This document shows, piece by piece, positions 27,661-59,214 of a stretch of 64,000 bases of DNA. Position 1 is the stretch's first letter. Every line of letters starts with the position of its first letter. The position numbers and the translations under genes were made by a program. Under the pieces are notes generated by a model. That model saw only the letters and a list, made by a program, of their open reading frames with translations, did no database searches and was not told the origin of the DNA. The stretch spans positions 1 through 64,000 of the IMG/VR virus record IMGVR_UViG_3300050013_000165. One strand, 5' to 3'. This DNA comes from a virus.

Positions 27661-28042
27661 GACACTCCAAATAAGTAATCAAAATCTTCAGGCGTTCGAT
27701 GTCGTCATTCAAAAGTCCTAATGCAATGTTGCAATTACGGCAAAGCAATCCTCGGATGCATTTGCCACAAGAACTAGTACCTGGACAACAACTGTGGTCG
27801 TGATCAACACAGAATAATTTGTGCCCGCCTCCTGGTTCTCGTGCTCCACAGATGCAGGTTCCACCTTGTCGCTCTAACAGCTTTTGGTACTCCGCAAGAG
27901 TGATGCTGTAACGGCTCAGAGATCGATTAGCTGATTTTTCAGGGTCGAGGTTTTTACGTTTCGAGGATGCTTTGTAGGAACACATTTGGCAATACGACCG
28001 AGGTCTTCCTTGCGCCGTCTTGAACTCACCTATTGGTTTCAT
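27641..28042 (-). CDS. endonuclease VII-family homing endonuclease; probable true start at 28100 across a frameshift
   Basis: YSITLAEY...QGGTCIC...VDHDHSCC...CGKCIRGLLCRNCN; upstream in-frame CEKC is cut from its ATG by one extra A. Confidence 0.85.
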   Translation of the reverse strand: MKPIGEFKTAQGRPRSYCQMCSYKASSKRKNLDPEKSANRSLSRYSITLAEYQKLLERQGGTCICGAREPGGGHKLFCVDHDHSCCPGTSSCGKCIRGLLCRNCNIALGLLNDDIERLKILITYLECRANKNS

Positions 28043-42985: not shown

Positions 42986-43354
42986 GTGGCAGTTAACGAA
43001 GTCTCAATTAGGGCGCTCTACACCGCCATCGTCAAGCTCGAAAAAGGTGCCCCCCTTGTCCACGTCTCGGGGTGCATCCAACAGCACCCCCCGTTCCGTC
43101 GAGGAAAGGTCCTTATAGTCAAGGTTCTTCCCCGACGAGGCATTGCAGTTGGTGTGTGGACACGGAGAAAAGTTCCTGACTGGATGCCGGATTGGATGGC
43201 CGACGAACTCTGGATTTTGCCGGAGTCGTGGGATAACCTCCCTCCTGAAGATTTGACCAAATTCAAGGACATTGCAAATTGGTTTGCCGATGATGCTGAG
43301 ACGCCGAACAACAGCGAAACAGAACGAGACACCAAACCAGTCGAAGCTGGCTGA
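42986..43354 (+). CDS. hypothetical protein
   Basis: GGAGG RBS, GTG start; PPFRRGK motif. Confidence 0.55.
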   Translation: MAVNEVSIRALYTAIVKLEKGAPLVHVSGCIQQHPPFRRGKVLIVKVLPRRGIAVGVWTRRKVPDWMPDWMADELWILPESWDNLPPEDLTKFKDIANWFADDAETPNNSETERDTKPVEAG

Positions 43355-43574
43355 GCGCGCCTCGAACCTCGGTGACGATGAGTTAGTGAAGCTCCTCGAA
43401 GCGTCCATCGCATCTATGTCGAGCTACGTCCCCGAGTACCGCTCGACGAGAGATGTTGCTTTTCTCGGGGAGATTCGACTGTCGGCTGAAATGGCCTACT
43501 CACTTGCTGATGAACTATTCAGTCGAGGGCAAGACTCCGCAGTCAAGCGCACTCGACAGTTCTTGGGCCGCTAA
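43293..43574 (+). CDS. conserved helical phage protein
   Basis: TAATG-coupled to the GT gene. Confidence 0.6.
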   Translation: MLRRRTTAKQNETPNQSKLAERASNLGDDELVKLLEASIASMSSYVPEYRSTRDVAFLGEIRLSAEMAYSLADELFSRGQDSAVKRTRQFLGR

Positions 43575-44347
43575 TGCCTGTCGATGTTGTTGTCGTGAAC
43601 TACAAGACACCGGATTTGCTTCAAGACTTCATTCGTTCTTATGAAGCCTTGGAACTACCGGGTTGCACGCTCACTATTGTTGAAGTTGAAGCGAACATTC
43701 CTGAAGATTGGCTTCGTGCTGAAGAATCCAATTCAAGGCAAACTCTCTTCTTTCGGGAAAACATTGGATATGGAAAAGCGTGCAACGAAGGGGCAGCTCT
43801 CGGGCACAATTCCATAATTCTCTTCGCTAACGCTGACACCCTTTTGAGTGATGGGTTCAGGGAATGCCATGACGCTTTAAGAGACCATCCGAATTGGGGA
43901 GTTCTCGGACCTCGACAAGTGAACGAGTTCAACTGCTTTACTGCGGGCGGCATCCCTGGTGGACCTCACGGCCATGTTCAACGTGGTTGGAACCAAACCG
44001 ATGTTGGTCAGTGCAGCGATGTGCTTGAAGACGTCTACTCGGTTTCGGGTTCGCTTTATTTCATCAAACGCTCTGTGTGGAAAGAACTGACTGAGTGTCC
44101 GGTTTGGAAAGAGTATGCACCCAATGCTGTTGGAGCCTTCTTGGAGACGCGGCACTACTTCGAAGAGACGACGTGTTCTCGGCATCTCACTGCTCACGGG
44201 CACATCAATGTGTTCTACGGACCCGTGAAGATGACACACCTCTTTCATCGTTCATCAGATCACGGGGGTTGGCAGGATCGAGAGGTCACCAACAGCAAAA
44301 CGATGCACAGAGAATTTCTTGCGCTACACGGCATTGAACATGAGTAA
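43574..44347 (+). CDS. GT2 glycosyltransferase
   Basis: VVVVNYKT, NIGYGKACNEGA, NADT, VSGS, YFEE. Confidence 0.92.
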   Translation: MPVDVVVVNYKTPDLLQDFIRSYEALELPGCTLTIVEVEANIPEDWLRAEESNSRQTLFFRENIGYGKACNEGAALGHNSIILFANADTLLSDGFRECHDALRDHPNWGVLGPRQVNEFNCFTAGGIPGGPHGHVQRGWNQTDVGQCSDVLEDVYSVSGSLYFIKRSVWKELTECPVWKEYAPNAVGAFLETRHYFEETTCSRHLTAHGHINVFYGPVKMTHLFHRSSDHGGWQDREVTNSKTMHREFLALHGIEHE

Positions 44348-44777
44348 CAAACTTCGGTGTAGTGCTTGTCGGCTGAATAAGGGTGAAGCAGAGTTTGCAC
44401 TGAATTCCCGAACTAAGACTGGGCATCAAAATCAATGCCGTAGTTGCATGAAGAAGCACAACTCTCGTTATACAACTGATGATTACCGCTGGAAGAAAAT
44501 CCTTTGGATGTATCATCTGACCCGAGCGCAATTTGAAGCCCTCTTGAAAAAGCAGGGCGGTCGTTGCGCCATTTGTCGGACGAAACGCCCAGGAGGTCGG
44601 TACAACCGTTGGGTAATCGATCACGATCACAAGTGTTGCGACGGCCCTTATTCCTGCGGTAAGTGTGTTCGAGGATTGCTGTGCAATCGATGTAATCACG
44701 GTTTAGGAAACTTTGCAGATAATCAAAAAGCTCTTCAGCGTGCTGTCATCTATCTTGAACGAATCGAGCACGAGTGA
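44340..44777 (+). CDS. endonuclease VII-family homing endonuclease
   Basis: QGGRCAIC...IDHDHKCC...CGKCVRGLLCNRCNHGLG. Confidence 0.92.
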   Translation: MSNKLRCSACRLNKGEAEFALNSRTKTGHQNQCRSCMKKHNSRYTTDDYRWKKILWMYHLTRAQFEALLKKQGGRCAICRTKRPGGRYNRWVIDHDHKCCDGPYSCGKCVRGLLCNRCNHGLGNFADNQKALQRAVIYLERIEHE

Positions 44778-44880
44778 TGGAAGACATTCGAGATCGAGAC
44801 TGGTGTGCTTGTGTTGATCCACTTCTCAATCAGTGCAAGGAGCGTCACTGTCCGTGGAAGAGAAAGCGACTTGAAGAAGA

Positions 44881-45612
44881 ATGAGACTTTTTGCTTTTAC
44901 GGTTGGAAAGAACGAGGAGAGTCGATACCTGTCTTCCATGATTCGCAATCTTGATGGCTTTGTCGATGATCACTTTTTTTACGACGATCAATCGACAGAT
45001 CGAACATTGGATATTGCTGACGTTTTGGGTTGTGTCGCTATCCGGCGTCCTGATGGGGTGGCCTCTTTTTCAGAAGATGAGGGAATGTTTCGCGAAGCCG
45101 CTTGGAAGTCTTTTGAGCTTCATATGCATCCCCGGCTTGGTGATTGGGTTCTCGTAATTGACTGTGACGAGTTTCTTTCCATCAAAGGTCAGGGTGTCGA
45201 GTTCAACGACATCATGCGTGGTGGAACGGCCGTCAATCTGAGTATCCCCGAAGTTTTCGGCTTTGATACAGATGGGTGCCCTCTTGTTCGCACGGATCGA
45301 AAGTGGGGAACAATTTTTGCTCCCCGACTTTTCGCCTATCAAGAAAATGGTGGCTTCGCTCGGGGCAAGGTTGGTGTTCCTGCTGTTCCGAGTTACGTCA
45401 TGGCGACCCCGAATCGGGTCTCGACGGACGATGTCGTTTTGATGCACTTGGGGTACGCACGGTTTGAAGATCAAGAGATCAAATACGCTCGATACAACGG
45501 CGTCGATGGTCATTCTGACGAACACGTTCAGTCAATTGTGTCACCGGACAAGACGCTTGTTCGGTGCGAAGAGTGGAAGTGCAGGATTCCGTGGAAACAG
45601 TTGATGTCATAG
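44881..45612 (+). CDS. GT2-like glycosyltransferase
   Basis: KNEE.RYL, DDQSTD.T, IDCDE, HLGY. Confidence 0.88.
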   Translation: MRLFAFTVGKNEESRYLSSMIRNLDGFVDDHFFYDDQSTDRTLDIADVLGCVAIRRPDGVASFSEDEGMFREAAWKSFELHMHPRLGDWVLVIDCDEFLSIKGQGVEFNDIMRGGTAVNLSIPEVFGFDTDGCPLVRTDRKWGTIFAPRLFAYQENGGFARGKVGVPAVPSYVMATPNRVSTDDVVLMHLGYARFEDQEIKYARYNGVDGHSDEHVQSIVSPDKTLVRCEEWKCRIPWKQLMS

Positions 45613-46223
45613 TTCCAACCTGTGGCGATATCGATGTATGGAAGCCGTTGGCCGAGCGTGCTCAACAGTCGGCCTTCAACCAAGTTGTCAAAGCGAATCG
45701 AGTGATCTGGTCACACAAGGCGACGGTTTCCGAAGCTCGGAACTTCGGAGCTTCACTCAGCACCGGAGATTGGCTGATCTTTCTTGACGCCGACGATGAA
45801 CTTGACCCACGGTATATCGAGCACATGATCGCGGGGAGTGGAGATATACGGCAACCTTCGACGCTCGGGGTCGTTAATGGCGTCGAGGATGATTTTCCAG
45901 TTCTTATCGAGCAGAAGAGCCTCATCATAGGTAACTATCTGATAATCGGCTCGATGGTCCGGCGGAAGTTGTTCTTGTCGGTAGGGGGTTTCCGTGACTT
46001 CCCGATTCTTGAAGATTGGGATTTATTTATTCGCCTCGCACTGGCTGGGGCTAAAATTGGCAAATGCCCTGATGCCATTTATCGGGTGCATGTACTTCCC
46101 GATAGTCGAAATAAACAGGGAGACTCAATTCATGGCAGCGTCTACAGTCAAATCCAAAGGGAACACGAAGCCGCTTGGTTCGCAAAGTTCCACCGTGACG
46201 AGTCATCCTTGTACGTTGTGTAA
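45591..46223 (+). CDS. GT2 glycosyltransferase
   Basis: ARNFGA, FLDADDEL, GGF, EDWDL. Confidence 0.9.
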   Translation: METVDVIVPTCGDIDVWKPLAERAQQSAFNQVVKANRVIWSHKATVSEARNFGASLSTGDWLIFLDADDELDPRYIEHMIAGSGDIRQPSTLGVVNGVEDDFPVLIEQKSLIIGNYLIIGSMVRRKLFLSVGGFRDFPILEDWDLFIRLALAGAKIGKCPDAIYRVHVLPDSRNKQGDSIHGSVYSQIQREHEAAWFAKFHRDESSLYVV

Positions 46224-46608
46224 GCGACCAATTAAGAGCAAATACAAGCGTTGCAGTAACTGTCGTCAAGGTCAACGAGAGGATTATTACGCCAATCACG
46301 ACCGCTTATTGAAGAAAATGCGTGAGCGTGATCCAGAAGGACGATTTGCTTACAACATAAAGCGTTGGTACGGAATCACGCTTGACGAGTACAACTCTTT
46401 GTTGAAAGAGCAGGGCGGGGGGTGCGCCATTTGCCATTCGACAGAACCGGCAGGCAAAAGAGTCAAGCGGTTTTCTGTTGACCATGACCACCGGACCGGA
46501 AAAGTTCGAGGTCTGCTTTGTAATCTTTGCAATCACTTGCTTGGCTGTGCTCGGGATGATTTGCAGCTTTTAGTAAATGCCGTTGCGTATTTGGAGCGGG
46601 TGGCATGA
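46132..46608 (+). CDS. endonuclease VII-family homing endonuclease
   Basis: YGITLDEY...QGGGCAIC...VDHDHRTGKVRGLLCNLCN. Confidence 0.92.
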   Translation: MAASTVKSKGNTKPLGSQSSTVTSHPCTLCKRPIKSKYKRCSNCRQGQREDYYANHDRLLKKMRERDPEGRFAYNIKRWYGITLDEYNSLLKEQGGGCAICHSTEPAGKRVKRFSVDHDHRTGKVRGLLCNLCNHLLGCARDDLQLLVNAVAYLERVA

Positions 46609-46889
46609 CCAATAAAATTTATCTAAATACTAACGAAATTATCTTTCTAAACGCCGACCATCAATTAGTTGATGGAAGTGCTGTTCATCCTCTGATGTGT
46701 GAACAGACAATGGAGCACATGAGAGAAGTCCACGGTGTTACAGACGGTTATACCGAAGGTGCAATTTTGGACTTGTCGTGGTGGCTGCAACAACACTTGA
46801 AACTTCACCCACCAATTACTCGGAAGTGGCCTGACCTTAATGAGCCTGGGTATGGTCGTCCAATAAAAATGAAACCTGTAAAACGATGA
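46605..46889 (+). CDS. hypothetical passenger protein
   Basis: ATGA-coupled to the endonuclease; AT-rich. Confidence 0.6.
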   Translation: MTNKIYLNTNEIIFLNADHQLVDGSAVHPLMCEQTMEHMREVHGVTDGYTEGAILDLSWWLQQHLKLHPPITRKWPDLNEPGYGRPIKMKPVKR

Positions 46890-47071
46890 GTTTGTGGATT
46901 AGGTGCAAAATGGCCGGGGCTGTAATTTCGGCAGTACCCGAAGCCATCTATCGCGTTCATGTGAACGAGGGTAGTCGCAACAAACAGCCGCCAGAGTTGC
47001 ACGGTCAGACCTATATGCAGATTCAGCAGGAACACCAAATGGAATACATGCGAATGTTCGGTCGAACATGA
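46886..47071 (+). pseudogene. displaced duplicate C-terminus of the 45591-46223 GT
   Basis: 28 of 48 residues identical by manual alignment (AIYRVHV, SRNKQ, HG..Y.QIQ.EH). Confidence 0.85.
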
Positions 47072-47787
47072 TCTCGTTCCTGATCCCTTATCTCCCAAAT
47101 GGTGACGAATACCGAGAACGTGCGTGCAAGTACATTTTGGGGGCGTTGGCAATCGATTGGCATGAGCCAGATGCCGAAATCATCATTGGAGGAATCGAGC
47201 CGTTTAATCGGTCGGCAGCGCGCAACCAGGCGGCAAAGCGTGCCGATGGGGACATTCTCGTTTTTGTCGATGCCGACTCTTTTGTTCCAAAGCATCAAAT
47301 TCGTGAAGCCCTTTCTCTGGCCGAGGAACGAGGGTGGGCATTTCCTTACGATCACTATTGCTCTATGACGGAGATGGGGACCGAGAACTTCATTGCTGGG
47401 GCTGCTCTTCCTGATCCATTGAGCTGGGGAACTGACATGTTTGATCGTGACTATTACGAGTTCATTTTTCCCTCGAAGGACACTCCTGAGCCCGCAGTCG
47501 GCGGGTGTGTTGTTGTGACTAGAGCTGCTTTCGAAACGGTAGGCGGATACGACGAGCGCTTCATTGGCTGGGGAGAAGAGGATCGAGCCTTCATGCTCGC
47601 ATTAGACACGCTCGTGAATGCAGAGCATCGGGTGAGCGGCAACATCTTTCACCTATGGCACGAGCACCCCGAAGAGGAGTGTTTCGCTCAACCGAACTTC
47701 AGTGATAACCGGAAGCTCTGTAATCGCTACCGGGAAGCTTGCGGCAACCTTCAAATGATGCGGGAGTTGATCGCCGAACGAAACTGA
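47068..47787 (+). CDS. GT2/GT7C-like glycosyltransferase
   Basis: FNRSAARN, VDAD, GGYDERFIGWGEED, HLWH. Confidence 0.92.
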   Translation: MISFLIPYLPNGDEYRERACKYILGALAIDWHEPDAEIIIGGIEPFNRSAARNQAAKRADGDILVFVDADSFVPKHQIREALSLAEERGWAFPYDHYCSMTEMGTENFIAGAALPDPLSWGTDMFDRDYYEFIFPSKDTPEPAVGGCVVVTRAAFETVGGYDERFIGWGEEDRAFMLALDTLVNAEHRVSGNIFHLWHEHPEEECFAQPNFSDNRKLCNRYREACGNLQMMRELIAERN

Positions 47788-47853
47788 CTCGCTTTTGATT
47801 AGGGCCGTGCGGTACAACAGGCACAAAGCTCTGATCAAGAGGAGAGCCAGAAA

Positions 47854-48249
47854 ATGACAATTGCACCTTCGAACATTCCGCCGGAGCGGACGCCGCAGTC
47901 GTACCCGCGCTCAATGGGTCCCGACATGGCGGGTCGCACCGGTCCCTTGCGTTTCGAGGAGGGGCTTGCCACCGACACCGATGTGCCGGACTCGTACACC
48001 CACGGGATGCGGGACGGCTATGCGACCGGGCCTGGTTCACCGAACCACAACAACCCCGACTCGCAGTACAAGCACGCCGACGAGACAATGGCCGAGCGTG
48101 CCCACGTCGGTTCGGCTTCATGGACGGACGCCCCGAGCATGCTCCGGTCGTTCGTTGATGGCGTCACCGAGCCCCCGGTCACCTTCCCCGACGTCATGCG
48201 CTCAGGCAGTCGCTATGAGCGAATGAGTCCAGAAACGGTGACGGACTAA
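47854..48249 (+). CDS. conserved putative virion protein
   Basis: GPLRFEEGLATDTDVP...ERAHVGSASW; GAGGAG RBS. Confidence 0.7.
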   Translation: MTIAPSNIPPERTPQSYPRSMGPDMAGRTGPLRFEEGLATDTDVPDSYTHGMRDGYATGPGSPNHNNPDSQYKHADETMAERAHVGSASWTDAPSMLRSFVDGVTEPPVTFPDVMRSGSRYERMSPETVTD

Positions 48250-48269
48250 ATTTAGCCCTCGGGCTAAAT
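48250..48269. terminator. perfect hairpin (terminator or operator)
   Basis: ATTTAGCCC-TC-GGGCTAAAT right after the stop. Confidence 0.5.
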
Positions 48270-48361
48270 GCTTCTTGTAGTTGTGCATTTCAATCGGAGA
48301 ACGAATCGTGCTCCCAGGTAATGGCTGGGATTCCTTATGACTCTCACAGGAGGAGAGATAT

Positions 48362-48997
48362 ATGTCCGGCCTTTATCCGAGCACCGTTCTTGTCGAACGA
48401 TTTCTTGCATCCGTTTCCGCGGAAACGATGGCTCAGAAGTTCATTGCTCCGTGTGACCTCGAAATCCTCGGGATGCTTCTTGTCCTTGGGACTGCCGCAG
48501 GTGCTGGCGACGGCGTAACCGTCAATGTCAGCAACAACCCGGTGGCTCAGGCCAACGTCGCCAGCACGCAGTTGTCTCCTAACCCCTACAACCTTTGGAC
48601 GGCAGCAAACGTCCCCTCGGTTGCGGGTTCGGCGACGAGCAACATCACGTCGGGAACGATCACCACGAACGCCTACTTGGGAGCGTTGCTTGAAAACAAG
48701 CCTTACGCTCTCGAATACCCGTTCCCTGGTCCGCCGGGAACCGTTGGGTTCGAGACGGCGCAACAGACGTCGCAAATCACGTCGGCTCCGGTGACGACTC
48801 CTCCGACGATTGTCAAGTTCGGCATCACGGCGGGGCTCGTTGCTCCCGACAACACCTACACTGACGCGAACGGCTTCACAAGCACGCCAACGTCAACGGT
48901 GCACGAAGGTGACATTCTCTCCTTCGTGATCGGTGCCATCAGTTCCGTCGGGGCTGCCGCCAACTTGGAGATCGTGCTCTACGGCCAAGTTCGGTAA
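48362..48997 (+). CDS. Thr-rich putative virion structural protein
   Basis: AGGAGG RBS; beta-rich, Thr/Ser/Ala-rich. Confidence 0.65.
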   Translation: MSGLYPSTVLVERFLASVSAETMAQKFIAPCDLEILGMLLVLGTAAGAGDGVTVNVSNNPVAQANVASTQLSPNPYNLWTAANVPSVAGSATSNITSGTITTNAYLGALLENKPYALEYPFPGPPGTVGFETAQQTSQITSAPVTTPPTIVKFGITAGLVAPDNTYTDANGFTSTPTSTVHEGDILSFVIGAISSVGAAANLEIVLYGQVR

Positions 48998-49248
48998 TGA
49001 ACCAAGAAGACGCTCGACTGCCGCAACGGCCTAGAGCTATTCAGGTTTGCGGTGTGTGTAATCCTCCATTTCGGACTCTTTCGAAATCCGAAATGGAGGA
49101 TCACATCGAGAATTACCACGGCACGAATTGGGCTCCTGGCTCCCTGGTGCGTTCCAAAGATCAGTTGGAATTCCGACCACATCTGATGGACACACCTTGG
49201 GGCTCAGAGTTCAAGGAAGGACCGCTGAATCGTCGAAGGAGACGGTAA
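48997..49248 (+). CDS. small C2H2-like protein
   Basis: CGVC...HIENYH. Confidence 0.55.
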   Translation: MNQEDARLPQRPRAIQVCGVCNPPFRTLSKSEMEDHIENYHGTNWAPGSLVRSKDQLEFRPHLMDTPWGSEFKEGPLNRRRRR

Positions 49249-50103
49249 ATGTCAATTGTCAATTTGCGTGGTATCGATGCAGCAGGCCACCCATCCGCAG
49301 CAGCAGTAAAGGCCGCAGGGTGCAATGTGGTTGGCTTCTATTTGACCGGTAAGTTCGCTCCGACGTCCGCACTGATCGAGAGCTACTTGGCCGCTGGGCT
49401 CGGGTTGATATCGATCTTCGAGACCGGCGCACAGAACGCTCTCGGCGCAGCCGCACAAGCCACGACCGATGCTCACGCCGCATTAGCTGCAATGGCGTCC
49501 TTCAAGCAGCCCACGGGAACCGCAGCCGTCTTCACAGTGGACTTCGACCCGACCGCTGCGCAACTCGCTGCTGTTGGTGAGTACGCCCAAACTTTCGCTG
49601 GCTTTTTGCGCGCAGCCAAGAACCTCGTCACCGGTTACGGAGGGACGGCCACTCTTCAAGAAGTAGTGAGCCGTGTTGATTACACCTGGCAAGCAGCCGG
49701 TTGGTCAAATGGTGTGCTCTTCCCCGCAAACATTCGCCAGGAGATCACGCAAATCACTGTTGGTGGCGTGCAGTGCGACCAAGACGCCATCCTGAAGCTC
49801 CCGTTTGGTGCGTGGTGTTCGAAGGGCGTTTATCCACCGACGCCGGTTCCAATGACTGCCGACGAATACTGCACCGTGCACGGCATGGTCATTATCGATT
49901 ACGCCGAAGCAGAGATGTGCGTGTTTCCGGCAAAGCGAACGACGGCAAAAGGTAAGGCGTTGCCGGAGATCGGCTGGTATCAGTGGAACAATACGACCCA
50001 CGACATGATGCCGCACAGTGATGCCAACATCCCAAAGACAGGGACCCTTTATGCATTCAAGGCAAATTTGGACGCAGCGGTCATTCCGCACGCCGGGACA
50101 TGA
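49249..50103 (+). CDS. endolysin, DUF1906/Rv2525c-like glycoside hydrolase
   Basis: GIDAA, YL, IFE, FTVDFD, GYGG, WQAAGWS, D.D. Confidence 0.85.
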   Translation: MSIVNLRGIDAAGHPSAAAVKAAGCNVVGFYLTGKFAPTSALIESYLAAGLGLISIFETGAQNALGAAAQATTDAHAALAAMASFKQPTGTAAVFTVDFDPTAAQLAAVGEYAQTFAGFLRAAKNLVTGYGGTATLQEVVSRVDYTWQAAGWSNGVLFPANIRQEITQITVGGVQCDQDAILKLPFGAWCSKGVYPPTPVPMTADEYCTVHGMVIIDYAEAEMCVFPAKRTTAKGKALPEIGWYQWNNTTHDMMPHSDANIPKTGTLYAFKANLDAAVIPHAGT

Positions 50104-50109
50104 TTGGAG

Positions 50110-50592
50110 ATGTTTGCTGTTACAGGGCCGTTGGTAGGGAACGACTCGGGGACAATAATTCTCGTGGTTGTGTGTTCTCTTATTTCTGGATTAGGCGCTA
50201 CAGGGATAAGTGCCTTGGTTCACCGTCGCTCTGATGATCAGGCCAATCAAAGGTTCAATGCTGAACTGCGCGGGCGCAAGGACGTCCCAGGACTCCCCGA
50301 CGAGGAGAGCATTATCGAGCGCATAGCGAGCGTTGAGAAGATGCTGAAACCTGGAACGAACGGGGTTAGGACTCTGTATGACAAGGTTGATTCCATCGAG
50401 AAGGTGACAGCGGCTGCCGGTTTGGGAGCAGAGCACGCAGCCCAAGCAGTTACCGAGGCTGCAATGCATGCAGCTATGCGAGTTGAAGCCGTTGCCGAGG
50501 CGGCAGCCCGACGACTTGATGATGCAGCACAAGCTGCGGCGACTCGACTAGCAGATGCTGAGACAAAAAAAACTGAAACTGAAAGGGATTGA
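50110..50592 (+). CDS. membrane protein of the lysis cassette
   Basis: N-terminal TM plus Ala-rich coiled coil, next to the lysin. Confidence 0.6.
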   Translation: MFAVTGPLVGNDSGTIILVVVCSLISGLGATGISALVHRRSDDQANQRFNAELRGRKDVPGLPDEESIIERIASVEKMLKPGTNGVRTLYDKVDSIEKVTAAAGLGAEHAAQAVTEAAMHAAMRVEAVAEAAARRLDDAAQAAATRLADAETKKTETERD

Positions 50593-50596
50593 ATAA

Positions 50597-50785
50597 ATGG
50601 GACCAGTGAGCGCAGTTGCAATTTTCATCTTTTTGTTTCTCTATGGCCTGAATGAAGGCAAATGGATTACGGCCAGCGGCAGATTGCTCGGCGTTATTGC
50701 GATCATTGTTGGACTCGTGATCTTGATTGACACGTTCTGGTATCAGTCGAGTGCTCGTTGGGCTGCAAGACATCCCAACGGCTAA
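50597..50785 (+). CDS. putative holin (2 TM)
   Basis: 62 aa, two hydrophobic helices, lysis context. Confidence 0.5.
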   Translation: MGPVSAVAIFIFLFLYGLNEGKWITASGRLLGVIAIIVGLVILIDTFWYQSSARWAARHPNG

Positions 50786-50837
50786 TGTCGGGAAAGTGAC
50801 TAACCAGTTCTAATCGCCTCTTGTTACCTTTGATGGC

Positions 50838-51551
50838 GTGTCTGAGCAGCAAGCATTCTTCGATCCAAAGAAGCTCAATCCTCATCAGTTTGAGCCTGTC
50901 GGCAGTGCTCTTGAAGGAGCATCGCAGTACACACACGGGCGACACACGATTGAGGGATTAGACGACCGCATCAATGACCGGCACGCCGGTTACCGGACCC
51001 AGCTTGATTATCGCATGGCCGAGAAGCAGCCCGAGTCACCAAACATTCGCCGGAGTTATGGCGCATTTCGAGGTGCGGTCAACAAGCAATACGACTTCAT
51101 GACAAAGCCTCGCGAAGAAGGCGGCATGGGACTCCGTCACGAAGCGGTCAATTTTGACCCATATGAGCCTAGCGCTGAGGGTGCGAAGGCAATGGGCGAG
51201 GATGTCAAGCGTGGTGTAATTCGCACGCACGCCACGACTCCTGAAGAGTCGCACGCCTATTTGAGCCCCGAGGAGAACGACAAGTTCCGAGCGGTGCACG
51301 ACGTCTTCGGTCACGCAGCCACCGGTCGTGGGTTTGATCGTTATGGCGAAGACGTTGCGTACCTCAGTCACCGGCAGATGTTTCCGAAGAAGGCTGTTCA
51401 AGCACTCACCTCAGAGACTCGCGGGCAGAACACCTATTTGAATTACGGACCTGGGGGACACGGGGCAGGAACTTTCCCCGATCAGTCCAACAAGCTCATC
51501 GGGCTTCCTGCTCGGGCTAGTCGTGTCCGGCGTCCACGGAGAAGTGTGTAA
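50838..51551 (+). CDS. conserved phage protein with HDxxGH (zincin-like) motif
   Basis: ENDKFRAVHDVFGH...F...GE..A...H...ALTSETRGQN. Confidence 0.65.
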   Translation: MSEQQAFFDPKKLNPHQFEPVGSALEGASQYTHGRHTIEGLDDRINDRHAGYRTQLDYRMAEKQPESPNIRRSYGAFRGAVNKQYDFMTKPREEGGMGLRHEAVNFDPYEPSAEGAKAMGEDVKRGVIRTHATTPEESHAYLSPEENDKFRAVHDVFGHAATGRGFDRYGEDVAYLSHRQMFPKKAVQALTSETRGQNTYLNYGPGGHGAGTFPDQSNKLIGLPARASRVRRPRRSV

Positions 51552-53309
51552 ATGGCGATTAGCTTCGTTTCTAATTCTTACCGAGCGTCGTCATCAGACC
51601 TCACGATTGCGATTAGTCCGCTCGGGCTCGTTGAGCTTGCCGACGAAGAGTTCGAGGTTCACGGGCCACGCCTCAATCGGTACGCATCCAACTGGGCCTT
51701 CTACCTTGGGCACCACTGGTCGTATCGGCGCGAGATCGGCGAGCCCCAACTCACGTTCAACTGGTGTAAGACGTTCAGTGATTACCTCACGAACTTCGCA
51801 CTCACCAACGGAGTCAATTTCTCGTCCCCCGAAGCGACGTCGGCGATTGTGCCGGAGCTGTTGCGCCAGGTTTGGGAAGAGCACCAGCCAATGGGCAAGA
51901 TGGCTGTGATGTGGGAGATCATGCAGCAAGGCTCGGTCTCCGGCGACTCGTTTGTCAAGGTTGCATTTGAAGAGGCCTACGACGACCCGGCGGGCAACTT
52001 CCACCCACCGAAGATTCGCATCCTTCCGCTCAACAGTGCCTTCTGTTTTCCTGAGTACCACCCCCACGACATGTCGCGCCTAATCCGCTTCAAGATGAAG
52101 TACCGCTTTTGGGGAACGGCGCTCGAAGGCACTCGACAGGTGTTCTCATATACCGAGCTTTGGACTGAAGACGCCTTCCAGTCGTTCATCAATGATGAGC
52201 TAATCGAGAGCCAAGAAAACCCGCTCGGGGTAATCCCGTTCATCCATGTCTCGAACACGAAGGTGCCGTCGTCGCCGTGGGGCTTGTCTGACATTCAAGA
52301 CGTCACGGACCTCAACCGGCAGTACAACGAGACGGCCACATTGATTACTGACATCGTGAACTACTACGCATCGCCGGTCACGATCATTACCGGCGCGAAA
52401 TCGAACAACCTCGAACGCGGCCCCCGCAAGGTATGGGCAATTCCGAATAAGGATGCTCGTGTTGCCAACCTCGAAATTAACTCACAGCTCGATGGACCTT
52501 TGAAGTTCCTCGAAACGCTGAAAGAGAAGATGCACGAGATTGTCAACATTCCGATGAATGCTTTTGGGCAGGAGTTGCAGATCAGCAACACCTCGGGCGT
52601 CGCACTTCAAATCACGTTGCTGCCATTGATGCAGAAGTTCCGACAGAAGTCGATTCAGTACGAGTCGGGGCTTGTTCGAGTTAATGAGCTAATCATCCGT
52701 GTCGCTTCGGTCTATATGCCGGAGCTTTTGCAGTTCGATCCATCTCGGGATGTCTTGCCTGAACCCGGTCAGCTTTCCGTGCTCGATCCGCTTGATCCTT
52801 TGACGTTTCGAAATAGTGTCGAATTTGCCAACCCGATGCCCATTGACAAGACGTTGGCTCTTCAGGAAATCCAAATGGAGATGGCACTCGGGCTCTTGTC
52901 GAAGCGTGGCGCTCTTCGCCGTCTTGGCGAGGCTTACCCCGCAGAAAAGCTCGAAGAGCTGTATAACGAATTGCACCTCGACCAACTCGAACAAGGTGCG
53001 CTCGATTTGCAAAGCGCACAGCTTCAGGTACTCATTCCGTTTCTCACCGGCATTTCCCCGACAACTGGGGAGCCGGTTGGAGAGGAAGGAGGGTCCGCAT
53101 CTACGACCAGTGCCGGTCCTGCTGTTCAGTCTGCCGGTGGCCCAGGTGTCAACACGGCGACTGCAACACAACCAGGCTCGGCGATGCCAAACATTTTCGA
53201 CAATCCAGAGACGAAGGATTTGCTCACTCGGCTCTCCACACTGGCGGCGGGAACCAAAGTTCCGCAAGTTCGGAATCCACTTCATGATCCAGAGGACGAC
53301 AATTCCTGA
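51552..53309 (+). CDS. portal protein
   Basis: 585 aa; FYLGHHW, GDSFVKV, NPLGVIPFIH, WGLSDI, SNTSGVAL; precedes scaffold and capsid. Confidence 0.92.
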   Translation: MAISFVSNSYRASSSDLTIAISPLGLVELADEEFEVHGPRLNRYASNWAFYLGHHWSYRREIGEPQLTFNWCKTFSDYLTNFALTNGVNFSSPEATSAIVPELLRQVWEEHQPMGKMAVMWEIMQQGSVSGDSFVKVAFEEAYDDPAGNFHPPKIRILPLNSAFCFPEYHPHDMSRLIRFKMKYRFWGTALEGTRQVFSYTELWTEDAFQSFINDELIESQENPLGVIPFIHVSNTKVPSSPWGLSDIQDVTDLNRQYNETATLITDIVNYYASPVTIITGAKSNNLERGPRKVWAIPNKDARVANLEINSQLDGPLKFLETLKEKMHEIVNIPMNAFGQELQISNTSGVALQITLLPLMQKFRQKSIQYESGLVRVNELIIRVASVYMPELLQFDPSRDVLPEPGQLSVLDPLDPLTFRNSVEFANPMPIDKTLALQEIQMEMALGLLSKRGALRRLGEAYPAEKLEELYNELHLDQLEQGALDLQSAQLQVLIPFLTGISPTTGEPVGEEGGSASTTSAGPAVQSAGGPGVNTATATQPGSAMPNIFDNPETKDLLTRLSTLAAGTKVPQVRNPLHDPEDDNS

Positions 53310-53869
53310 TGGCATTGACGTCAGTTGAAAGACGACGGCTGTACGTCCAACGCCATCCCGAACGTGTTGCTGCTTCCAAGAAGTCCTATGGCGCAACCGA
53401 ACGAGGCAAGACGACAAAGAGGAATTACAACCGTCGATATTACGAAGAGCATGGCGAAGAAATTCGCTCCCAGGCGAGAGATTGGTGTAAACAAAATCTT
53501 GATCGCAAGCGGCAACTGAACCATGTTTGGCGTGATGCCAATAGAGAGCATTACAACGACACCCAGCGAAGTTGGTATAAGACCAATCGAGAACAAAACC
53601 TATTGCAGCGCCGTGCTTACGACGCTCTGGTTGCAGCCCAAAGGCGTGCTCGAAAGCGTGGGGCTCAAATTGGTGCGGTCACTATCGAGCTTCTTCAGGA
53701 GAAGTGGAATTATTGGTTTGGGCGTTGCTGGATGTGCGGAAAACAAGCTGAAGCTTGGGATCACGTAAAACCTCTAGCTAAGGGCGGTGCTCATTGCCTC
53801 GCAAACCTTCGTCCGGCATGCAAACCATGCAACAGCCGAAAACGAGATCGTTGGCCGTTTCGTAACTGA
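53309..53869 (+). CDS. HNH homing endonuclease
   Basis: CWMCG....WDHVKPLAKGGAH...NLRPACKPCNSRK. Confidence 0.92.
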   Translation: MALTSVERRRLYVQRHPERVAASKKSYGATERGKTTKRNYNRRYYEEHGEEIRSQARDWCKQNLDRKRQLNHVWRDANREHYNDTQRSWYKTNREQNLLQRRAYDALVAAQRRARKRGAQIGAVTIELLQEKWNYWFGRCWMCGKQAEAWDHVKPLAKGGAHCLANLRPACKPCNSRKRDRWPFRN

Positions 53870-53950
53870 CTTCCGGTCGGCATTAGCCATTAACTACTGT
53901 CGCCGACGTAACACTGTGGCCTTAATCGGAGAATTAGAAGGAGAGTTGTA

Positions 53951-54754
53951 ATGACACTCGATCCAGCAGCGGTAGTTCCTGGCGGAACTCCGCTTCACCT
54001 CCACATCGACCCGCGTGCTTCCGCAGTGCCGGATGGCTATATGTCAGCAGCGCAGGTCGAAGAGCTGCTAAATCGTGAGCGCGAGCGCGTTCGTCAGGAA
54101 GAGAAGAACAAGCTCTACCCTGAACTTGAACAGGTTCGAACCGAATTTCGTTCAGCGCAAGAGACGCTTGCAACGCTCACGACTGAGCGAGAGCAGCAGA
54201 TCGCCGAGCAGACTCGGATTGCCCAGGAAGCCGAAGCGGAAGCCGAGCGCCTTCGGCAAGAAGGACTCAGTGCAAACCAGCGCCTCGAAGAGTATCAATC
54301 TTCGATGGATCAACGATTTGCCCAAATCGAAGCCGAGCGTTCCGCCGAGCGAGCATTACTCGCAAAGGAATCGCGTTTGCGTGAACTCGACAACTACGCA
54401 TCACGGCGTGTGCAAGAAGTGACGCAGGCGGAAGAGATCATGCCGGAACTTGCCACCTTCATTCGTGGGAACAACGAAGACGAGATTGAGCAGAACATCG
54501 AAATCGCCAAGGCGAAGAGCGCCGAAATCGCAGCTCAGATCAGTGCGCGGTTCAACAGTGCGCCTCCACGTCGAGTGATGATGCCTCCGACCGGAGCGCC
54601 GCCCATCGACGTCGCCGCCTTCACCGGCAACGACCGTCAAATCACTGCACAAGAGATCGCCGACATGCCGATGGAGGATTACCGGCAAATGCGGGGGGCT
54701 CTTCTCGGTGCCGCAAGCGAGCGTGTTCGCACTCTTGGGGCGTATGCGCCGTAA
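53951..54754 (+). CDS. capsid scaffolding protein
   Basis: Coiled-coil, Glu/Arg-rich, directly upstream of the capsid gene. Confidence 0.8.
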   Translation: MTLDPAAVVPGGTPLHLHIDPRASAVPDGYMSAAQVEELLNRERERVRQEEKNKLYPELEQVRTEFRSAQETLATLTTEREQQIAEQTRIAQEAEAEAERLRQEGLSANQRLEEYQSSMDQRFAQIEAERSAERALLAKESRLRELDNYASRRVQEVTQAEEIMPELATFIRGNNEDEIEQNIEIAKAKSAEIAAQISARFNSAPPRRVMMPPTGAPPIDVAAFTGNDRQITAQEIADMPMEDYRQMRGALLGAASERVRTLGAYAP

Positions 54755-54888
54755 TAGTGCCTTGCATTGCATTAGTGAAATGCACTTTGATGTTTGATTA
54801 GCGGATTTTCTTTTGTAGAACCAAATCGTGGCTGCCAGAGTCAGGCATTAGAGGCTCGAATCATTATTGAGTAAAGGAGACTCAAAGC

Positions 54889-55881
54889 ATGGCCTCTGCA
54901 ATTACCGGCTCGCCTTATCTGGCCGCTTCGCCGACTGGATATGCGGGCGCAAACTCAACGCTTGGGCAGGCAATCCAGACGATTTGGTCCAAGGAAATCC
55001 TGTTCCAGGCAATGCCCATTCTGCGCTTCGAGCAGTTTGCGGTCAAAAAGACGGAGCTTGGTGTTCAGCCTGGTCTGACCATCAACTTCATGCGATACAA
55101 CAACCTGCCAAATGCTTCGCAGTTGGTGGAAGGTGTTCGCATGCAGACCGTCGCTTTGACGGCGAGCCAGTTCTCGATCACGGTTGCAGAACAGGGCTTC
55201 GCTGTGTCGGTCACGGAGCTGTTGCTCAATGCCTCGTTCGACGACGTCATGGCTTCGGCCTCCCGTCTGCTCGGACGAAACATGGCGCAGTACCTCGACT
55301 ACAGCGCTCGGAACACACTGCTTTTGGCGTCGTCAGTGATCTTCGGATACAACTACCTCGCCACCGACAACCCGCGGACCACGCAGTCGCCGTATGACCA
55401 CGGCTCCGCTGCAACGTCCACCAACGGGTTGACGGGGAACTACTACTTCACCCCGGCTTTGGTGAAGGATGCAGTATTGACCCTTGCTTCGAAGAACGTT
55501 CCTCGCCTCGGTGAGACCTACGTCTGCTTCGTGGCACCGACCCAGTCCCGAGAGCTTCGAGACTGCCCTGAGTTCATCGAGGTTACGAAGTACGCCGCCC
55601 CCGGCAACTTCGCCCTTGGCGAGATCGGTCGGCTTTGGGACTGCGTGTTCATTGAGACCACGCAGGTCAACCAAGCGCAGACCACGGCCGCTACTCCGGC
55701 CACGTACTACCAGGCGATCTTCATCGGCGACAATGCTTTCGGGCATGCGATTTCGTTGCCGGTCGAGCTTCGTGACGGTGGCGTTCTCGACTTCGGTCGA
55801 GAGCACGCTCTGGCATGGTACGCGATTTGGGGTCTTGGATTGATTACAGATTGGTCGGTCGTGATCGCAAATACCAACTAG
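54889..55881 (+). CDS. major capsid protein (N4-gp56-like)
   Basis: IWSKEILFQAMPILRFEQFAVKKTELG, GEIGR, DFGREHALAWY; AAGGAG RBS. Confidence 0.93.
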   Translation: MASAITGSPYLAASPTGYAGANSTLGQAIQTIWSKEILFQAMPILRFEQFAVKKTELGVQPGLTINFMRYNNLPNASQLVEGVRMQTVALTASQFSITVAEQGFAVSVTELLLNASFDDVMASASRLLGRNMAQYLDYSARNTLLLASSVIFGYNYLATDNPRTTQSPYDHGSAATSTNGLTGNYYFTPALVKDAVLTLASKNVPRLGETYVCFVAPTQSRELRDCPEFIEVTKYAAPGNFALGEIGRLWDCVFIETTQVNQAQTTAATPATYYQAIFIGDNAFGHAISLPVELRDGGVLDFGREHALAWYAIWGLGLITDWSVVIANTN

Positions 55882-55915
55882 TTGAACTCCCCAGTAGTTG
55901 TGTTAAACTGCTGGG

Positions 55916-56659
55916 ATGACAATCAGAACGTGTGCTCTGTGCCCAGCACAGAAAGCTCCATACAAACATCCAGAAGACCCTGAGCTTCGTATCTGTCAGG
56001 CGTGCAAGCGTCGATTAGAACGACAAGCTCGGGGTCTTTTGCTGCCAGGACCAAAGCCTGATCCAACACGACCAAGGTCACGATATGGAACACAACGGGA
56101 AGGAAGCCCAAATCGAATATCACGTCGTCAATTTGCGACTGAAACTCGCTGTGCCAACAATCACCTGTTTACCAATGAGAGCACGTATTGGCGCAAAGAC
56201 CCAAATGATGGAGTAGAGCGTCGAATCTGCCGAATTTGTTTGCGAGCAGCACAGCGCAAATCAAAAGGGCTTCCAGCAATTCCAGATGACACTCCGTTTG
56301 GACCACGCAATAAAGACAAGACGCATTGTCCACAAAATCATGAGTACACGCCAGAGAACACTTACACCTATAAGAGCGGTCTTCGTCGATGCCGAAAATG
56401 TATGCGAGCGCAGCAAATACGACACGATTATGGGATTGAGCCGGAGCAGTTTGACTTTTTTATCGAGAAGCAAGGAAATGCTTGTGCGATTTGTGAGCGG
56501 TCGTTTGAGGTGGAAACACCGCACGTTGACCACGATCACGCTGACGGGCATGTACGAGGCATTCTCTGTCGTCCTTGTAACTCGGGCCTCGGGTTCTTTG
56601 AGGATTCCCTGACGATGCTCAGGCGGGCCGTTCGCTACTTGGATAGGATTTCAGCATGA
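55916..56659 (+). CDS. endonuclease VII-family homing endonuclease with Zn modules
   Basis: YGI...QGNACAIC...HVDHDHADGHVRGILCRPCNSGLG. Confidence 0.9.
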   Translation: MTIRTCALCPAQKAPYKHPEDPELRICQACKRRLERQARGLLLPGPKPDPTRPRSRYGTQREGSPNRISRRQFATETRCANNHLFTNESTYWRKDPNDGVERRICRICLRAAQRKSKGLPAIPDDTPFGPRNKDKTHCPQNHEYTPENTYTYKSGLRRCRKCMRAQQIRHDYGIEPEQFDFFIEKQGNACAICERSFEVETPHVDHDHADGHVRGILCRPCNSGLGFFEDSLTMLRRAVRYLDRISA

Positions 56660-57078
56660 GCAGGATTTCACCGCAGGCTCAACGACTAAAGGACGCCGCC
56701 GCCAATGTCACCGGCCACCCAAAAAGCTTTTTTACGGTTCGCACCGAGAAGAACCGTTATGGCGAATACGGTGATGCTCATCTCGATTTGAACATCCGAA
56801 ATATCGTTCGAAAAGGAAATGGGCTGACGCATAGAGATGTTCACGAGAATCTTGCGGATCACGCCGATGATCTTGCAAAGCAAGGCTTGACCGTGAATGT
56901 GATTCACTCTTTGGACGGTCGCCGGAGCACCCATGTCTCGTCTACTCACAACCCTCGGCAAGAGGTGGCGGAATATCAAAATGGCAAGTGGAACACCCGT
57001 TCTCTGTTTCACGACCGTCGTCAATTGAGCGCCCAGGAACTTCGAACACTTCAAAAGCCGGATTCGGAGTGGAACTAA
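56656..57078 (+). CDS. hypothetical passenger protein
   Basis: ATGA-coupled to the endonuclease. Confidence 0.65.
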   Translation: MSRISPQAQRLKDAAANVTGHPKSFFTVRTEKNRYGEYGDAHLDLNIRNIVRKGNGLTHRDVHENLADHADDLAKQGLTVNVIHSLDGRRSTHVSSTHNPRQEVAEYQNGKWNTRSLFHDRRQLSAQELRTLQKPDSEWN

Positions 57079-57113
57079 CCGACTGGTCGGTGGTTGTGGC
57101 GAATACGAACTAA
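57078..57113 (+). pseudogene. orphan copy of the capsid gene 3' end (TDWSVVVANTN*)
   Basis: Matches MCP end TDWSVVIANTN* at 55846-55881 with mostly third-position differences. Confidence 0.9.
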
Positions 57114-57142
57114 CGTCTCCAATCGAGACGTCTGCAAGGCTG

Positions 57143-57168
57143 AGGCCCGCCCTTCGGGGCGGGTCTTT
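57143..57168 (+). terminator. intrinsic terminator
   Basis: AGGCCCGCCC-TTCG-GGGCGGGTCT-TT. Confidence 0.85.
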
Positions 57169-57169
57169 G

Positions 57170-57370
57170 CTATTCGAGGGCTTCTGTAATGAGGAAGCTC
57201 ACTCGTTCGTCGTCGCGCCATCGCACATAGAGATCGACCATTTCGTCAATCGCTTCCCACGTTGTGACGAATCCACAACGGGCGGCTTCTCGGGCAGCGG
57301 AATTGCGCAGACGAACACGCACCTCATCGTTGCTGATTGTCGTCCAGTACGGAACGAATCCGCCGAGCAT
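57170..57370 (-). CDS. hypothetical protein (solitary antisense gene)
   Basis: 66-aa ORF ending at the terminator. Confidence 0.45.
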   Translation of the reverse strand: MLGGFVPYWTTISNDEVRVRLRNSAAREAARCGFVTTWEAIDEMVDLYVRWRDDERVSFLITEALE

Positions 57371-57469
57371 TAGAGCAGCCTAACTGACGTGAAGTGGGAT
57401 TAGGCCGCATGGCAAGCTCTTTCTCATTGGGAACCCGGGACTAACCATGTCCCAAAAAGGAGAATTCAA

Positions 57470-58048
57470 ATGGCGCAGCCAAAAGGTAATCGAGGTCCAG
57501 ACCGGGCGAGTGCGGGAAGCCGTCGCTCTGCTCGTTCCCCCGGCGACATGACCGGGCGAGTAAAGGACCAACAGGCGAAGGCAGCCAAGGCTGATCTTGA
57601 AGAGCGCGGAGCAGAACTCACAATGATGAACTCAGCGCAGGCCGACGACGAAGAGCACGGTGTCTTCGACGGCCAGTCCGGTGACCGTGTTGATTTGCGT
57701 GATGCACAAAACCGTCACGTTGTAATCGATGACGAAGGCGATGACGATGAGAGCTTCCGATTCGCTCCTCAATTTGCCGAGGAAGAGCCCACTTTGACTG
57801 GTAAGGAAAGCGCCGAAACGCTTGCGCCAATCATCGCCGCCCGACGACAGCACGCAGCGCCTCCGGCGCACGCAGTTCGTTCGTCGATGGCAACCATTCG
57901 CGTCGATCAAGACATCGAGGATATGACCTACGGAGTCGTGAACGGCCGACCAAATAACTTCACACTCCGTGAGGGGTTGAAGTATCGATTGCCGCTTCCC
58001 GTGGCCGAGCATTTGAACGATCTCGGGTTGGTTCGCCAATGGTTCTAA
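57470..58048 (+). CDS. conserved head-region protein
   Basis: AAGGAG RBS; IEDMTYG...G.KY.LP..VAEHL...G. Confidence 0.75.
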   Translation: MAQPKGNRGPDRASAGSRRSARSPGDMTGRVKDQQAKAAKADLEERGAELTMMNSAQADDEEHGVFDGQSGDRVDLRDAQNRHVVIDDEGDDDESFRFAPQFAEEEPTLTGKESAETLAPIIAARRQHAAPPAHAVRSSMATIRVDQDIEDMTYGVVNGRPNNFTLREGLKYRLPLPVAEHLNDLGLVRQWF

Positions 58049-58061
58049 CGAGGAGAACACT

Positions 58062-58370
58062 ATGCCGTCCGTCCAACAGACGTTGGTCCCCAATCAGTTC
58101 TTTCGGTACACCATTACCGATGCAATTTGTCGCGGGGTCACTGTTTATCAAGTAGCCAACGTTGCAGAATGTTGGGCGACGGCAAATGGGCAGGACCCCG
58201 TTGTGCCCTCCGGTGGTGTTGAAGTGACCGATGGTCAAACGACTCTTTCGGGAGTTCTCGGATTGGCGGGTGCACGGGTCCTGCATCCTCCGTATCCGGC
58301 GGGCCAACCTGTTCAACCAAACATTCGAATTCTCTCGCAAGGATCGCCAACAATCGTAATCGAGTGGTGA
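58062..58370 (+). CDS. putative virion protein
   Basis: GAGGAG RBS; structural block. Confidence 0.65.
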   Translation: MPSVQQTLVPNQFFRYTITDAICRGVTVYQVANVAECWATANGQDPVVPSGGVEVTDGQTTLSGVLGLAGARVLHPPYPAGQPVQPNIRILSQGSPTIVIEW

Positions 58371-58374
58371 TCAA

Positions 58375-59214
58375 ATGGCGCTCGATAACCTAGTCAACCT
58401 TGCTTATTCGCTTGTAACTGGCGCACCGTCGCCGCCAACGTCGGGAACGGCGTGCACGGTTCAAGCGGGCATCACCTGGCCGACCGGCAACTTCGACATG
58501 TTGTTCTGGCCTCCCGGTGACATCCCTCTGCTTTCGAACGCAGAGATTTGTCGTTGTTCGGCGGTTGGCAACACAATCACGATGACTCGCGGTGCATATG
58601 GCACTACCGAGCAAGCCATCGCCATTGGTTGGCAGTGTGCTCAGGTCATTACGGCCGATCTCTTCACCGAGATTGTGGCTTTGATTAACGCCACTGTGAC
58701 GAGCTTCAATACTCGAACTGGTGCCGTGACCCTTGCTGCGGCAGACATCGAGGGGTTGTTCACCGCTGCGGGTCAGTTGTTTGTTGGAACTGGTTCAGGA
58801 ACTGGTTCGCTCCTTGCCGGTGGAGCAACTGGCACATTCCTTGGCGCTAATACCGGCGGGGCTCCCACTTGGAAGGCCGTCACGAGCAGTGTTGCTGCTA
58901 CGGCAAGTGAGGTTGAGTGCACCACCACCGGGGCTACTCAAATTGTCACCTATACGCCAAGCGGTGACGGAAACTTTCACATCAGTGTTTACTTTCGAGT
59001 CGTCACGGCAACGACCGTTGTCACCATTACGGTGACTTGGACAGACGCCACTGGTTCGCAAACAATGACGTTGATAAATGCTGTTTCGTGTGCAACTGGT
59101 TCGTACTCACTCACCGATTTCATGATCAACGCAGAAGCAGATGCGATAACCGTTTCAATGACCGCTGGAACCTCAAATCAGGTCTACGGTTCCGCTTCGA
59201 TACTCGTGGGTTAG
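58375..59214 (+). CDS. Thr/Gly-rich fibre or decoration protein
   Basis: VTSFNTRTGAVTL and LFVGTGSGT fibre-type motifs. Confidence 0.7.
   Translation: MALDNLVNLAYSLVTGAPSPPTSGTACTVQAGITWPTGNFDMLFWPPGDIPLLSNAEICRCSAVGNTITMTRGAYGTTEQAIAIGWQCAQVITADLFTEIVALINATVTSFNTRTGAVTLAAADIEGLFTAAGQLFVGTGSGTGSLLAGGATGTFLGANTGGAPTWKAVTSSVAATASEVECTTTGATQIVTYTPSGDGNFHISVYFRVVTATTVVTITVTWTDATGSQTMTLINAVSCATGSYSLTDFMINAEADAITVSMTAGTSNQVYGSASILVG

Follow-up and report, generated by a model that had tools for sequence, protein, structure and literature searches.

The virus record IMGVR_UViG_3300050013_000165 is a linear sequence of 101,468 nt, of which the first 64 kb (hereafter, the window) were analyzed. The genome is that of a BRock-like actinophage, a soil phage, and its closest cultured relatives are the Streptomyces phages LuckySocke, Alone3, BRock and GiJojo, with genomes of 112–116 kb and capsid proteins ~71% identical to the one encoded here. 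In the window, an intact major capsid gene is followed by a gene for an endonuclease VII (EndoVII)-type nuclease, by a small open reading frame (ORF) without assigned function (hereafter, the passenger), and then by a second copy of the last 11 codons of the capsid gene (hereafter, the orphan tail), behind which lie two hairpins (Table 1). This nuclease cassette, and how it came to stand between two ends of the same capsid gene, is the subject of the analysis.

The capsid protein had 4720 homologues, the best of which were full length and 90–92% identical, and an AT-rich spacer precedes the ribosome site of its gene. A reading made from the sequence alone (hereafter, the sequence-only reading) had claimed that the last 11 codons of this gene are duplicated ~1.2 kb downstream, with mostly third-position changes, and both parts of that claim held. 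The end of the capsid gene (55846–55881, the tail in use) and the orphan tail (57078–57113) are the highest-ranked pair of direct repeats in the region, 35 nt long, 77% identical and 1232 nt apart. They share 10 of 11 residues and differ at 9 of 36 bases, eight of them third codon positions and the ninth a first position, where Ile becomes Val. At least eight third-position differences out of nine would arise by chance with p = 1.3e-4, and when the downstream 3 kb were shuffled 300 times, the best match to the 11-residue tail reached 6/11, against 10/11 in the real sequence. As their differences are almost purely synonymous, the two tails evolved apart in different lineages, each as a functional capsid end. 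Both endings (…VVIANTN and …VVVANTN) are genuine capsid C-termini among the 120 best homologues, and the complete orphan peptide, TDWSVVVANTN, is the actual capsid C-terminus in 8 of these 120 relatives.

The boundary of the duplicated segment is sharp. The first base of the orphan tail (A, 57078) is the final base of the passenger's TAA stop codon (57076–57078), as the sequence-only reading had described, and the 48 nt upstream of it gave no score above shuffles against 78 capsid alleles, so that the edge of homology lies at 57078. A resemblance of GFGVEL to GLGLI upstream of the orphan tail was rejected as chance, with nothing there exceeding the shuffles. In the working capsid gene, the corresponding junction falls between the codons for I319 and T320, where a stretch of the protein that is invariant in the 120 homologues meets the variable tail. 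The codons that flank this junction (GGA TTG ATT ACA GAT) are each found in only 4–16 of the 78 other alleles; the orphan tail has the majority codons ACC GAC.

The nuclease that had been recognized between the two tails was identified by a match to PF02945 (76.9 bits against a cut-off of 23.6; E = 1e-21) and by matches to PHROG "endonuclease VII" families, and its best solved structural relatives are Hpy99I and T4 EndoVII. The EndoVII motif (DHHRN) comprises a central DHDH between an N-terminal and a C-terminal CxxC, with an Arg after the DHDH and an Asn after the second CxxC, and has been tied experimentally to homing-type cleavage in the nuclease F-CphI (PMC6083498). The translated gene contains the whole of it, namely CAIC, then VDHDH, then R-G-I-L-C-R-P-C-N, and Cys-rich repeats are present at the N-terminus. 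Homologues that are 55–62% identical span 96–98% of its length, which supports the ATG at 55916 as the start codon.

Table 1. Features of the capsid locus and of the two further insertions of the same design in the window.
Feature	Position	Strand	Remarks
Second instance: gene ending in IEHE and stop (43574-44347), EndoVII gene (44319-44777) also ending in IEHE and stop	43574-44777	+	
Third instance: glycosyltransferase (45564-46223), EndoVII (45994-46608), 94-amino-acid passenger (46605-46889), orphan glycosyltransferase tail (46886-47071)	45564-47071	+	
Portal gene	51552-53309	+	PF05133
HNH gene, PF01844 / HNH_5	53309-53869	+	Between portal and scaffold genes
Scaffold-like gene	53951-54754	+	
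Major capsid gene, 330 amino acids, N4-gp56 family, intact	54889-55881	+	PF25209, E = 7e-9; AAGGAG ribosome site upstream
Capsid tail in use, TDWSVVIANTN and TAG	55846-55881	+	Read as replacement end from the element
10-bp hairpin abutting the nuclease ATG	55890-55915	+	Fold of 55876-55935
EndoVII-motif (DHHRN / beta-beta-alpha-metal) endonuclease gene, 247 amino acids	55916-56659	+	PF02945, E = 1e-21
Passenger ORFan, 140 amino acids	56656-57078	+	Start overlaps nuclease stop (ATGA)
Orphan capsid tail, TDWSVVVANTN and TAA	57078-57113	+	Read as displaced native end
Two hairpins (57113-57131, 57142-57167), then T-rich tract	57113-57177	+	Terminator-like end of capsid transcript
Next late gene after gap	57470-58048	+	

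Base composition separates the cassette from the body of the capsid gene. The nuclease and passenger genes have a G+C content of 50–51% and a third-position G+C content (GC3) of 0.42–0.53, compared with 58% and 0.72 for the whole capsid gene. Along the capsid gene, GC3 is ~0.8 in mid-gene windows and 0.5–0.6 in the last ~45 codons. The orphan tail has G or C at the third position in 9 of its 11 codons, like the capsid body. These values fit a cassette and a tail in use that are foreign to the capsid body and an orphan tail that is like it, that is, a donor-derived, respelled end on a resident gene body.

The sequence-only reading had also placed a strong terminator after the orphan tail. The hairpin at 57142–57167, in which a UUCG loop caps a stem of 11 pairs, was confirmed and is highly stable (−37.4 kcal/mol over 76 nt; z = −4.2), yet it was missed by a simple terminator scan because its T tract is imperfect, so that "terminator-like" is the better description. 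The smaller hairpin in front of it (57113–57131) is terminator-like on the minus strand. In two cassette-free relatives, L001 and L002, a hairpin of similar strength lies 7–25 nt past the capsid stop codon, the same arrangement as that of the orphan tail and its hairpin. No promoter-like site was found between the capsid gene and the cassette genes, and the cassette may be co-transcribed with the capsid gene. No Shine-Dalgarno sequence was found ahead of the nuclease ATG, which is abutted by a hairpin (−18.7 kcal/mol, z = −2.7 for the fold of the surrounding 60 nt) that could limit translation of the nuclease from capsid transcripts or form the 3' end of an RNA.

To compare the locus among relatives, we took 80 capsid loci from viral contigs and mapped them with the window proteins. 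The closest relatives (L001, L002 and L003; capsid proteins 92–93% identical) are cassette-free, with 90–240 nt between the capsid stop codon and the next late gene, and the site of the cassette nuclease is empty in these three and in most of the 80 loci; presence of the nuclease is thus optional. LuckySocke likewise has no nuclease after its capsid gene. Six more distant relatives (L015, L023, L035, L041, L063 and L073) carry EndoVII-type genes directly 3' of the capsid gene, whose products are 34–43% identical to the window nuclease over most of its length. A quick maximum-likelihood tree placed the window nuclease and the after-capsid nucleases on one side of a split (SH-aLRT, the Shimodaira-Hasegawa-like approximate likelihood-ratio test, 90%), and the four paralogues in the window genome on the other side together with nucleases at other positions. 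The tree, which has many unresolved forks and long branches, suggests a nuclease lineage tied to the after-capsid site, with support that is only moderate because the tree is otherwise poorly resolved.

Two further insertions of the same design were found ~10 kb away on the same contig. In the first of them (43574–44777), the codons of the two IEHE ends differ only synonymously, and the nuclease matches PF02945 with E = 3e-22. In the other (45564–47071), the end of a glycosyltransferase gene and an orphan tail (a 61-amino-acid ORF) share 30 of 58 residues (E = 2e-19), with matches to PF00535 and PF02945, and the compositional polarity is the same as at the capsid gene. Its 94-amino-acid passenger is ATGA-coupled and unrelated to the 140-amino-acid one. 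The order of gene body, in-frame inserted C-terminus, nuclease ORF and native C-terminus was therefore found at all three sites of the window.

We scanned all 32 nuclease ORFs in the fetched loci for such end duplications. In L035 (2787–3391), the after-capsid EndoVII gene ends in VETN and stop like the capsid gene before it, with three of the four codons synonymously respelled; it seems to hold a shorter orphan end of the capsid gene, joined at another point. In L085 (3172–5141), an unrelated viral contig, an HNH_3/NUMOD4 nuclease gene follows a SNF2/DEAD helicase gene and both end in LRRVA and stop, with the Leu and both Arg codons respelled. By our estimate, an exact stop-anchored match of four or five terminal residues has a chance of roughly 1e-5 per pair, which puts these matches well outside chance and indicates that the design is recurrent and not confined to one nuclease family. 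The nuclease ORF continues in frame into the native end, and borrows its stop codon, in three of these five cases; one may speculate that translation thereby still terminates, and a coupled next gene is still restarted, as it was without the insertion. The window genome has at least five EndoVII-type genes (1819–2442, 27641–28042 on the minus strand, 44319–44777, 45994–46608 and 55916–56659), an unusually heavy load given that no more than one was counted in each of five relatives with complete or near-complete genomes. No duplicated end was found at the paralogues at 1819–2442 and 27641–28042, nor in four further BRock-like genomes with 0–1 EndoVII gene each.

The passenger had been called unexplained cargo, and the searches pointed to no function for it. 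It matched no Pfam or PHROG family, and its only relatives among 1.8 billion representatives were two remote ones, P0162 (E = 2e-5) and P0163 (E = 5e-4). The three sequences align over ~110 residues with 29 invariant columns, so the passenger is a real but very rare protein. Conservation ends at around residue 115; beyond this core, an extension made up of the last ~25 residues reaches the junction and was modelled with a predicted local distance difference test score (pLDDT) below 40. AlphaFold2 models with and without the three-sequence alignment reached a pLDDT of ~55; Foldseek returned nothing at E = 0.001 or better from the PDB and BFVD, and the ESM Atlas gave no usable match. No loci were found when viral, metagenome and genome collections were scanned with the passenger, the three-sequence alignment or P0162, and no other fetched locus contained the passenger. 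An ATGA-coupled small ORF (103 amino acids, with a weak phrog_6170 match) also follows the after-capsid EndoVII gene of L015 (3414–3725). The three small EndoVII-coupled ORFs (the window passenger, the one at 46605 and that of L015) are mutually unrelated and absent from all other loci, and hence probably represent variable cargo and not a fixed partner. The passenger is accordingly likely to be hitch-hiking cargo; alternatively, it may act together with the nuclease, for example by protecting broken ends or the donor allele.

Taken together, the 1232 nt from 55846 to 57077 probably represent a free-standing homing-endonuclease element composed of a replacement capsid tail, an EndoVII-motif nuclease and a cargo ORFan. 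The view that a mobile nuclease cassette occupies the capsid gene end is supported by the cassette-free close relatives, the related nucleases at the same site, the foreign composition and the two other insertions of the same design. As is typical of homing genes, the insertion lies beside a conserved target, in that the I319/T320 junction ends the invariant stretch. In the proposed mechanism, during co-infection the nuclease would cut nuclease-free capsid alleles in or near the invariant stretch that encodes WGLGLITD. The break would be repaired from the element-bearing genome, with the capsid body serving as the left homology arm, and the recipient's own tail from the break onward, together with its terminator, would be left downstream as the orphan. 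The new capsid gene would be a hybrid with the donor tail, respelled around the site and probably nuclease-resistant. Cleavage probably occurs within or close beside the codons for WGLGLITD, a stretch that ends at the orphan boundary. Resistance of the tail in use to the nuclease is likewise probable, as hinted by the five minority codons at the junction. As to the direction of transfer, the replacement tail would have come from the donor and the native end would have been displaced.

Several observations weigh against this interpretation. The sequence-only reading had proposed a search for capsid alleles that end directly in the orphan DNA and the window's hairpin, and no relative with a capsid gene ending in exactly this way was found; an exact search of viral contigs for the terminator hairpin also gave no match. 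No donor was found, that is, no phage with the window nuclease, or a closer one, plainly after the capsid stop codon. The orphan tail and the tail in use both match L001 at 30 of 36 positions, and sliding identity along the capsid gene against L001–L003 revealed no clear mosaic boundary at ~80% DNA identity. The drop in capsid GC3 is based on ~30–45 codons and is statistically weak, and the first 30 codons of the gene are also low. Most after-capsid nucleases in the relatives lack an orphan tail, which means that tail duplication is not obligatory for this nuclease lineage.

The same arrangement could have arisen with the opposite polarity, if the capsid gene with its tail, the nuclease and the passenger were native and contiguous, with the nuclease as an ordinary free-standing gene behind the capsid stop codon, and the orphan tail, hairpin and late genes had been imported by an illegitimate crossover inside the capsid tail of another phage, amounting to a module exchange at the nuclease gene. 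Nuclease genes have been reported at boundaries of genetic exchange between phages (PMC10448857). The next late gene is only 38–53% identical among close relatives whose capsid proteins are 92% identical, so the boundary is recombinationally active (searched as a lineage marker, this gene had one relative only, at 46%), and the two tails lie equally far from L001, all of which would fit this polarity. However, the capsid body matches the orphan tail in GC3 and not the tail in use or the cassette, the minority codons cluster at the junction on the capsid side, and the glycosyltransferase insertion shows the same compositional polarity, which together make the reversed direction unlikely. A local origin is more improbable still. 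It would have the capsid tail copied in place during an illegitimate insertion of the cassette and diverging afterwards, with no foreign tail involved, and it would account for the AAT that both tails have at the third-last codon (in 0 of 78 other alleles) and for the uncommon TCG that they share. A non-coding orphan should nevertheless change at all positions, and eight of the nine differences are at third positions with the ninth a change of Ile to Val; the two tails, 25% divergent over 36 nt, are as far apart as separate phages of the group are (~80% identity), and in L085 both Arg codons were respelled with multiple changes while the peptide was kept.

As the record is a metagenome-derived virus contig, two strains could have been joined at the cassette during assembly, the outcome that the sequence-only reading had named as refuting it. 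We consider such a chimera very improbable: the passenger protein was found on six contigs and the nuclease on four, from JGI and Logan assemblies, the end of the passenger and the capsid codons before T320 share no sequence able to mislead an assembler, both junctions yield tidy gene overlaps, and the contig has two more structures of the same design 10 kb away. The lowest probability goes to a self-splicing intron or intein, with the cassette removed from RNA or protein and the orphan tail as the true last exon, which we regard as almost certainly wrong. Group I introns do occur in the capsid genes of this phage group: in L004 (5094–5317; capsid 89% identical), the gene is broken after codon ~35 by ~260 nt with stop codons that match the full-length group I intron model RF00028 (E = 4.6e-9; 40.3 bits, which is less than the gathering score of 50), and spliced capsid genes are reported for Cluster J mycobacteriophages (PMC3706429). 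In the window, by contrast, a sensitive Rfam search of 54700–57500 returned no intron family at E up to 1, and a gathering-score search of 43000–58500 no intron, with L004 as the positive control. All but 34 nt of the insert are coding, which leaves no space for a ribozyme core, and the capsid ORF is already complete without splicing. An intein or other in-frame insertion was ruled out, as the 1232 nt are not a multiple of three and hold stop codons.

Other features of the neighborhood were noted in passing. The HNH gene at 53309–53869, a classical HNH, begins on the portal stop codon and has a low GC3 (0.46); its only homologue among the fetched loci is in L003, upstream of the portal gene there, and no duplication of the portal end was seen at it. 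Its product may be a further optional nuclease or an HNH protein associated with packaging. In four relatives (L004, L028, L046 and L080), the portal gene matches the window portal in two or three pieces ~1 kb apart, with no Rfam family at gathering score within them, and these splits are possibly introns, inteins or nuclease insertions. A 66-amino-acid ORF on the minus strand (57170–57370), situated between the hairpins and the next late gene, has no family and a counterpart in no fetched locus, and the spacer before the next late gene (356 nt) is longer than in L001–L003.

If the capsid cassette is such a homing element, the "home and rescue" design, which is proven for the WHO elements of yeast and described for the mobile endonuclease ORFs (mORFs) of fungal mitochondria, operates in tailed phages too, with an EndoVII-motif nuclease and on the structural gene with the highest expression. 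A single phage genome would then record three such events at three different targets, with unrelated cargo genes, and a concrete, testable route would exist for rewriting phage gene ends and moving ORFans, in which the sharp orphan boundary predicts where the nuclease cuts. A broader idea, which we put forward only tentatively and think more doubtful than not, is that EndoVII-type and HNH cassettes of actinophages constitute a general system that cuts, replaces the gene end and delivers cargo, each unit carrying a respelled resistant end and a coupled ORFan. Were this true, such units would be a main route for mosaic phage gene ends and for the spread of ORFans, and an orphan boundary would mark the cleavage site of the nuclease.

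To our knowledge, the free-standing Seg and Mob nuclease genes of T4-like phages are intergenic, flanked by homology on either side, and do not produce a second copy of a gene end. They resemble the window nuclease in being optional genes between conserved genes and, as reported for intronless homing, spread by a double-strand break and its repair with co-conversion of flanking DNA (PMC2988022, PMC2790892), much as is proposed for the window element. F-CphI of cyanophage S-PM2 (Fang et al. 2018, PMC6083498) is likewise a free-standing phage nuclease with the CxxC/DHDH/R/CxxC-N motif that adjoins a conserved target gene, although only the catalytic domain is common to it and the window nuclease. 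It targets psbA, where the donor allele is protected by an intron (collaborative homing), whereas protection here would come from a respelled, split target.

The layout itself is known from eukaryotes. At yeast FBA1, each homing event of a WHO element, in which the sensitive allele is cut and then repaired from the allele that carries the element, replaces the gene's 3' end and leaves the old end downstream (PMC7282813); the functional unit is a nuclease gene with a 3' end that confers resistance, and repeated events give chimeric gene ends (PMC7282813; Coughlan et al. 2020). Both there and in the window, the nuclease gene directly follows a gene that is essential and strongly expressed, with a copy of the gene end in use that is resistant in yeast and probably so here, and with the old end remaining as a fragment. 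The WHO nucleases are, however, intein-like LAGLIDADG and zinc-finger proteins acting in yeast meiosis and not EndoVII-motif proteins of a phage, the piece replaced here is only 11 codons and is accompanied by an extra cargo gene, and cleavage and resistance are shown for WHO and proposed here. In the mORF gene hybrids of fungal mitochondria (Allomyces atp6; Glomus atp6, atp9, cox2 and nad3; Beaudet et al. 2013, PMC3630166), the same order of gene body, inserted foreign C-terminus, endonuclease ORF and native C-terminus is found, and the two ends differ mostly silently. As in the WHO and mORF cases, the two capsid tails differ in the way that alleles of different lineages do. The fungal nucleases are of the LAGLIDADG or GIY-YIG type and reside in organellar genomes, and the native fungal end was shown to be closer to relatives; in the window, both capsid tails match L001 equally, and composition favours the polarity expected of such an element. 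No published phage example of an end-replacing homing element was found in the literature searched, and the capsid locus described here is a clear, if not fundamentally new, phage example of a layout known from yeast and fungal mitochondria.

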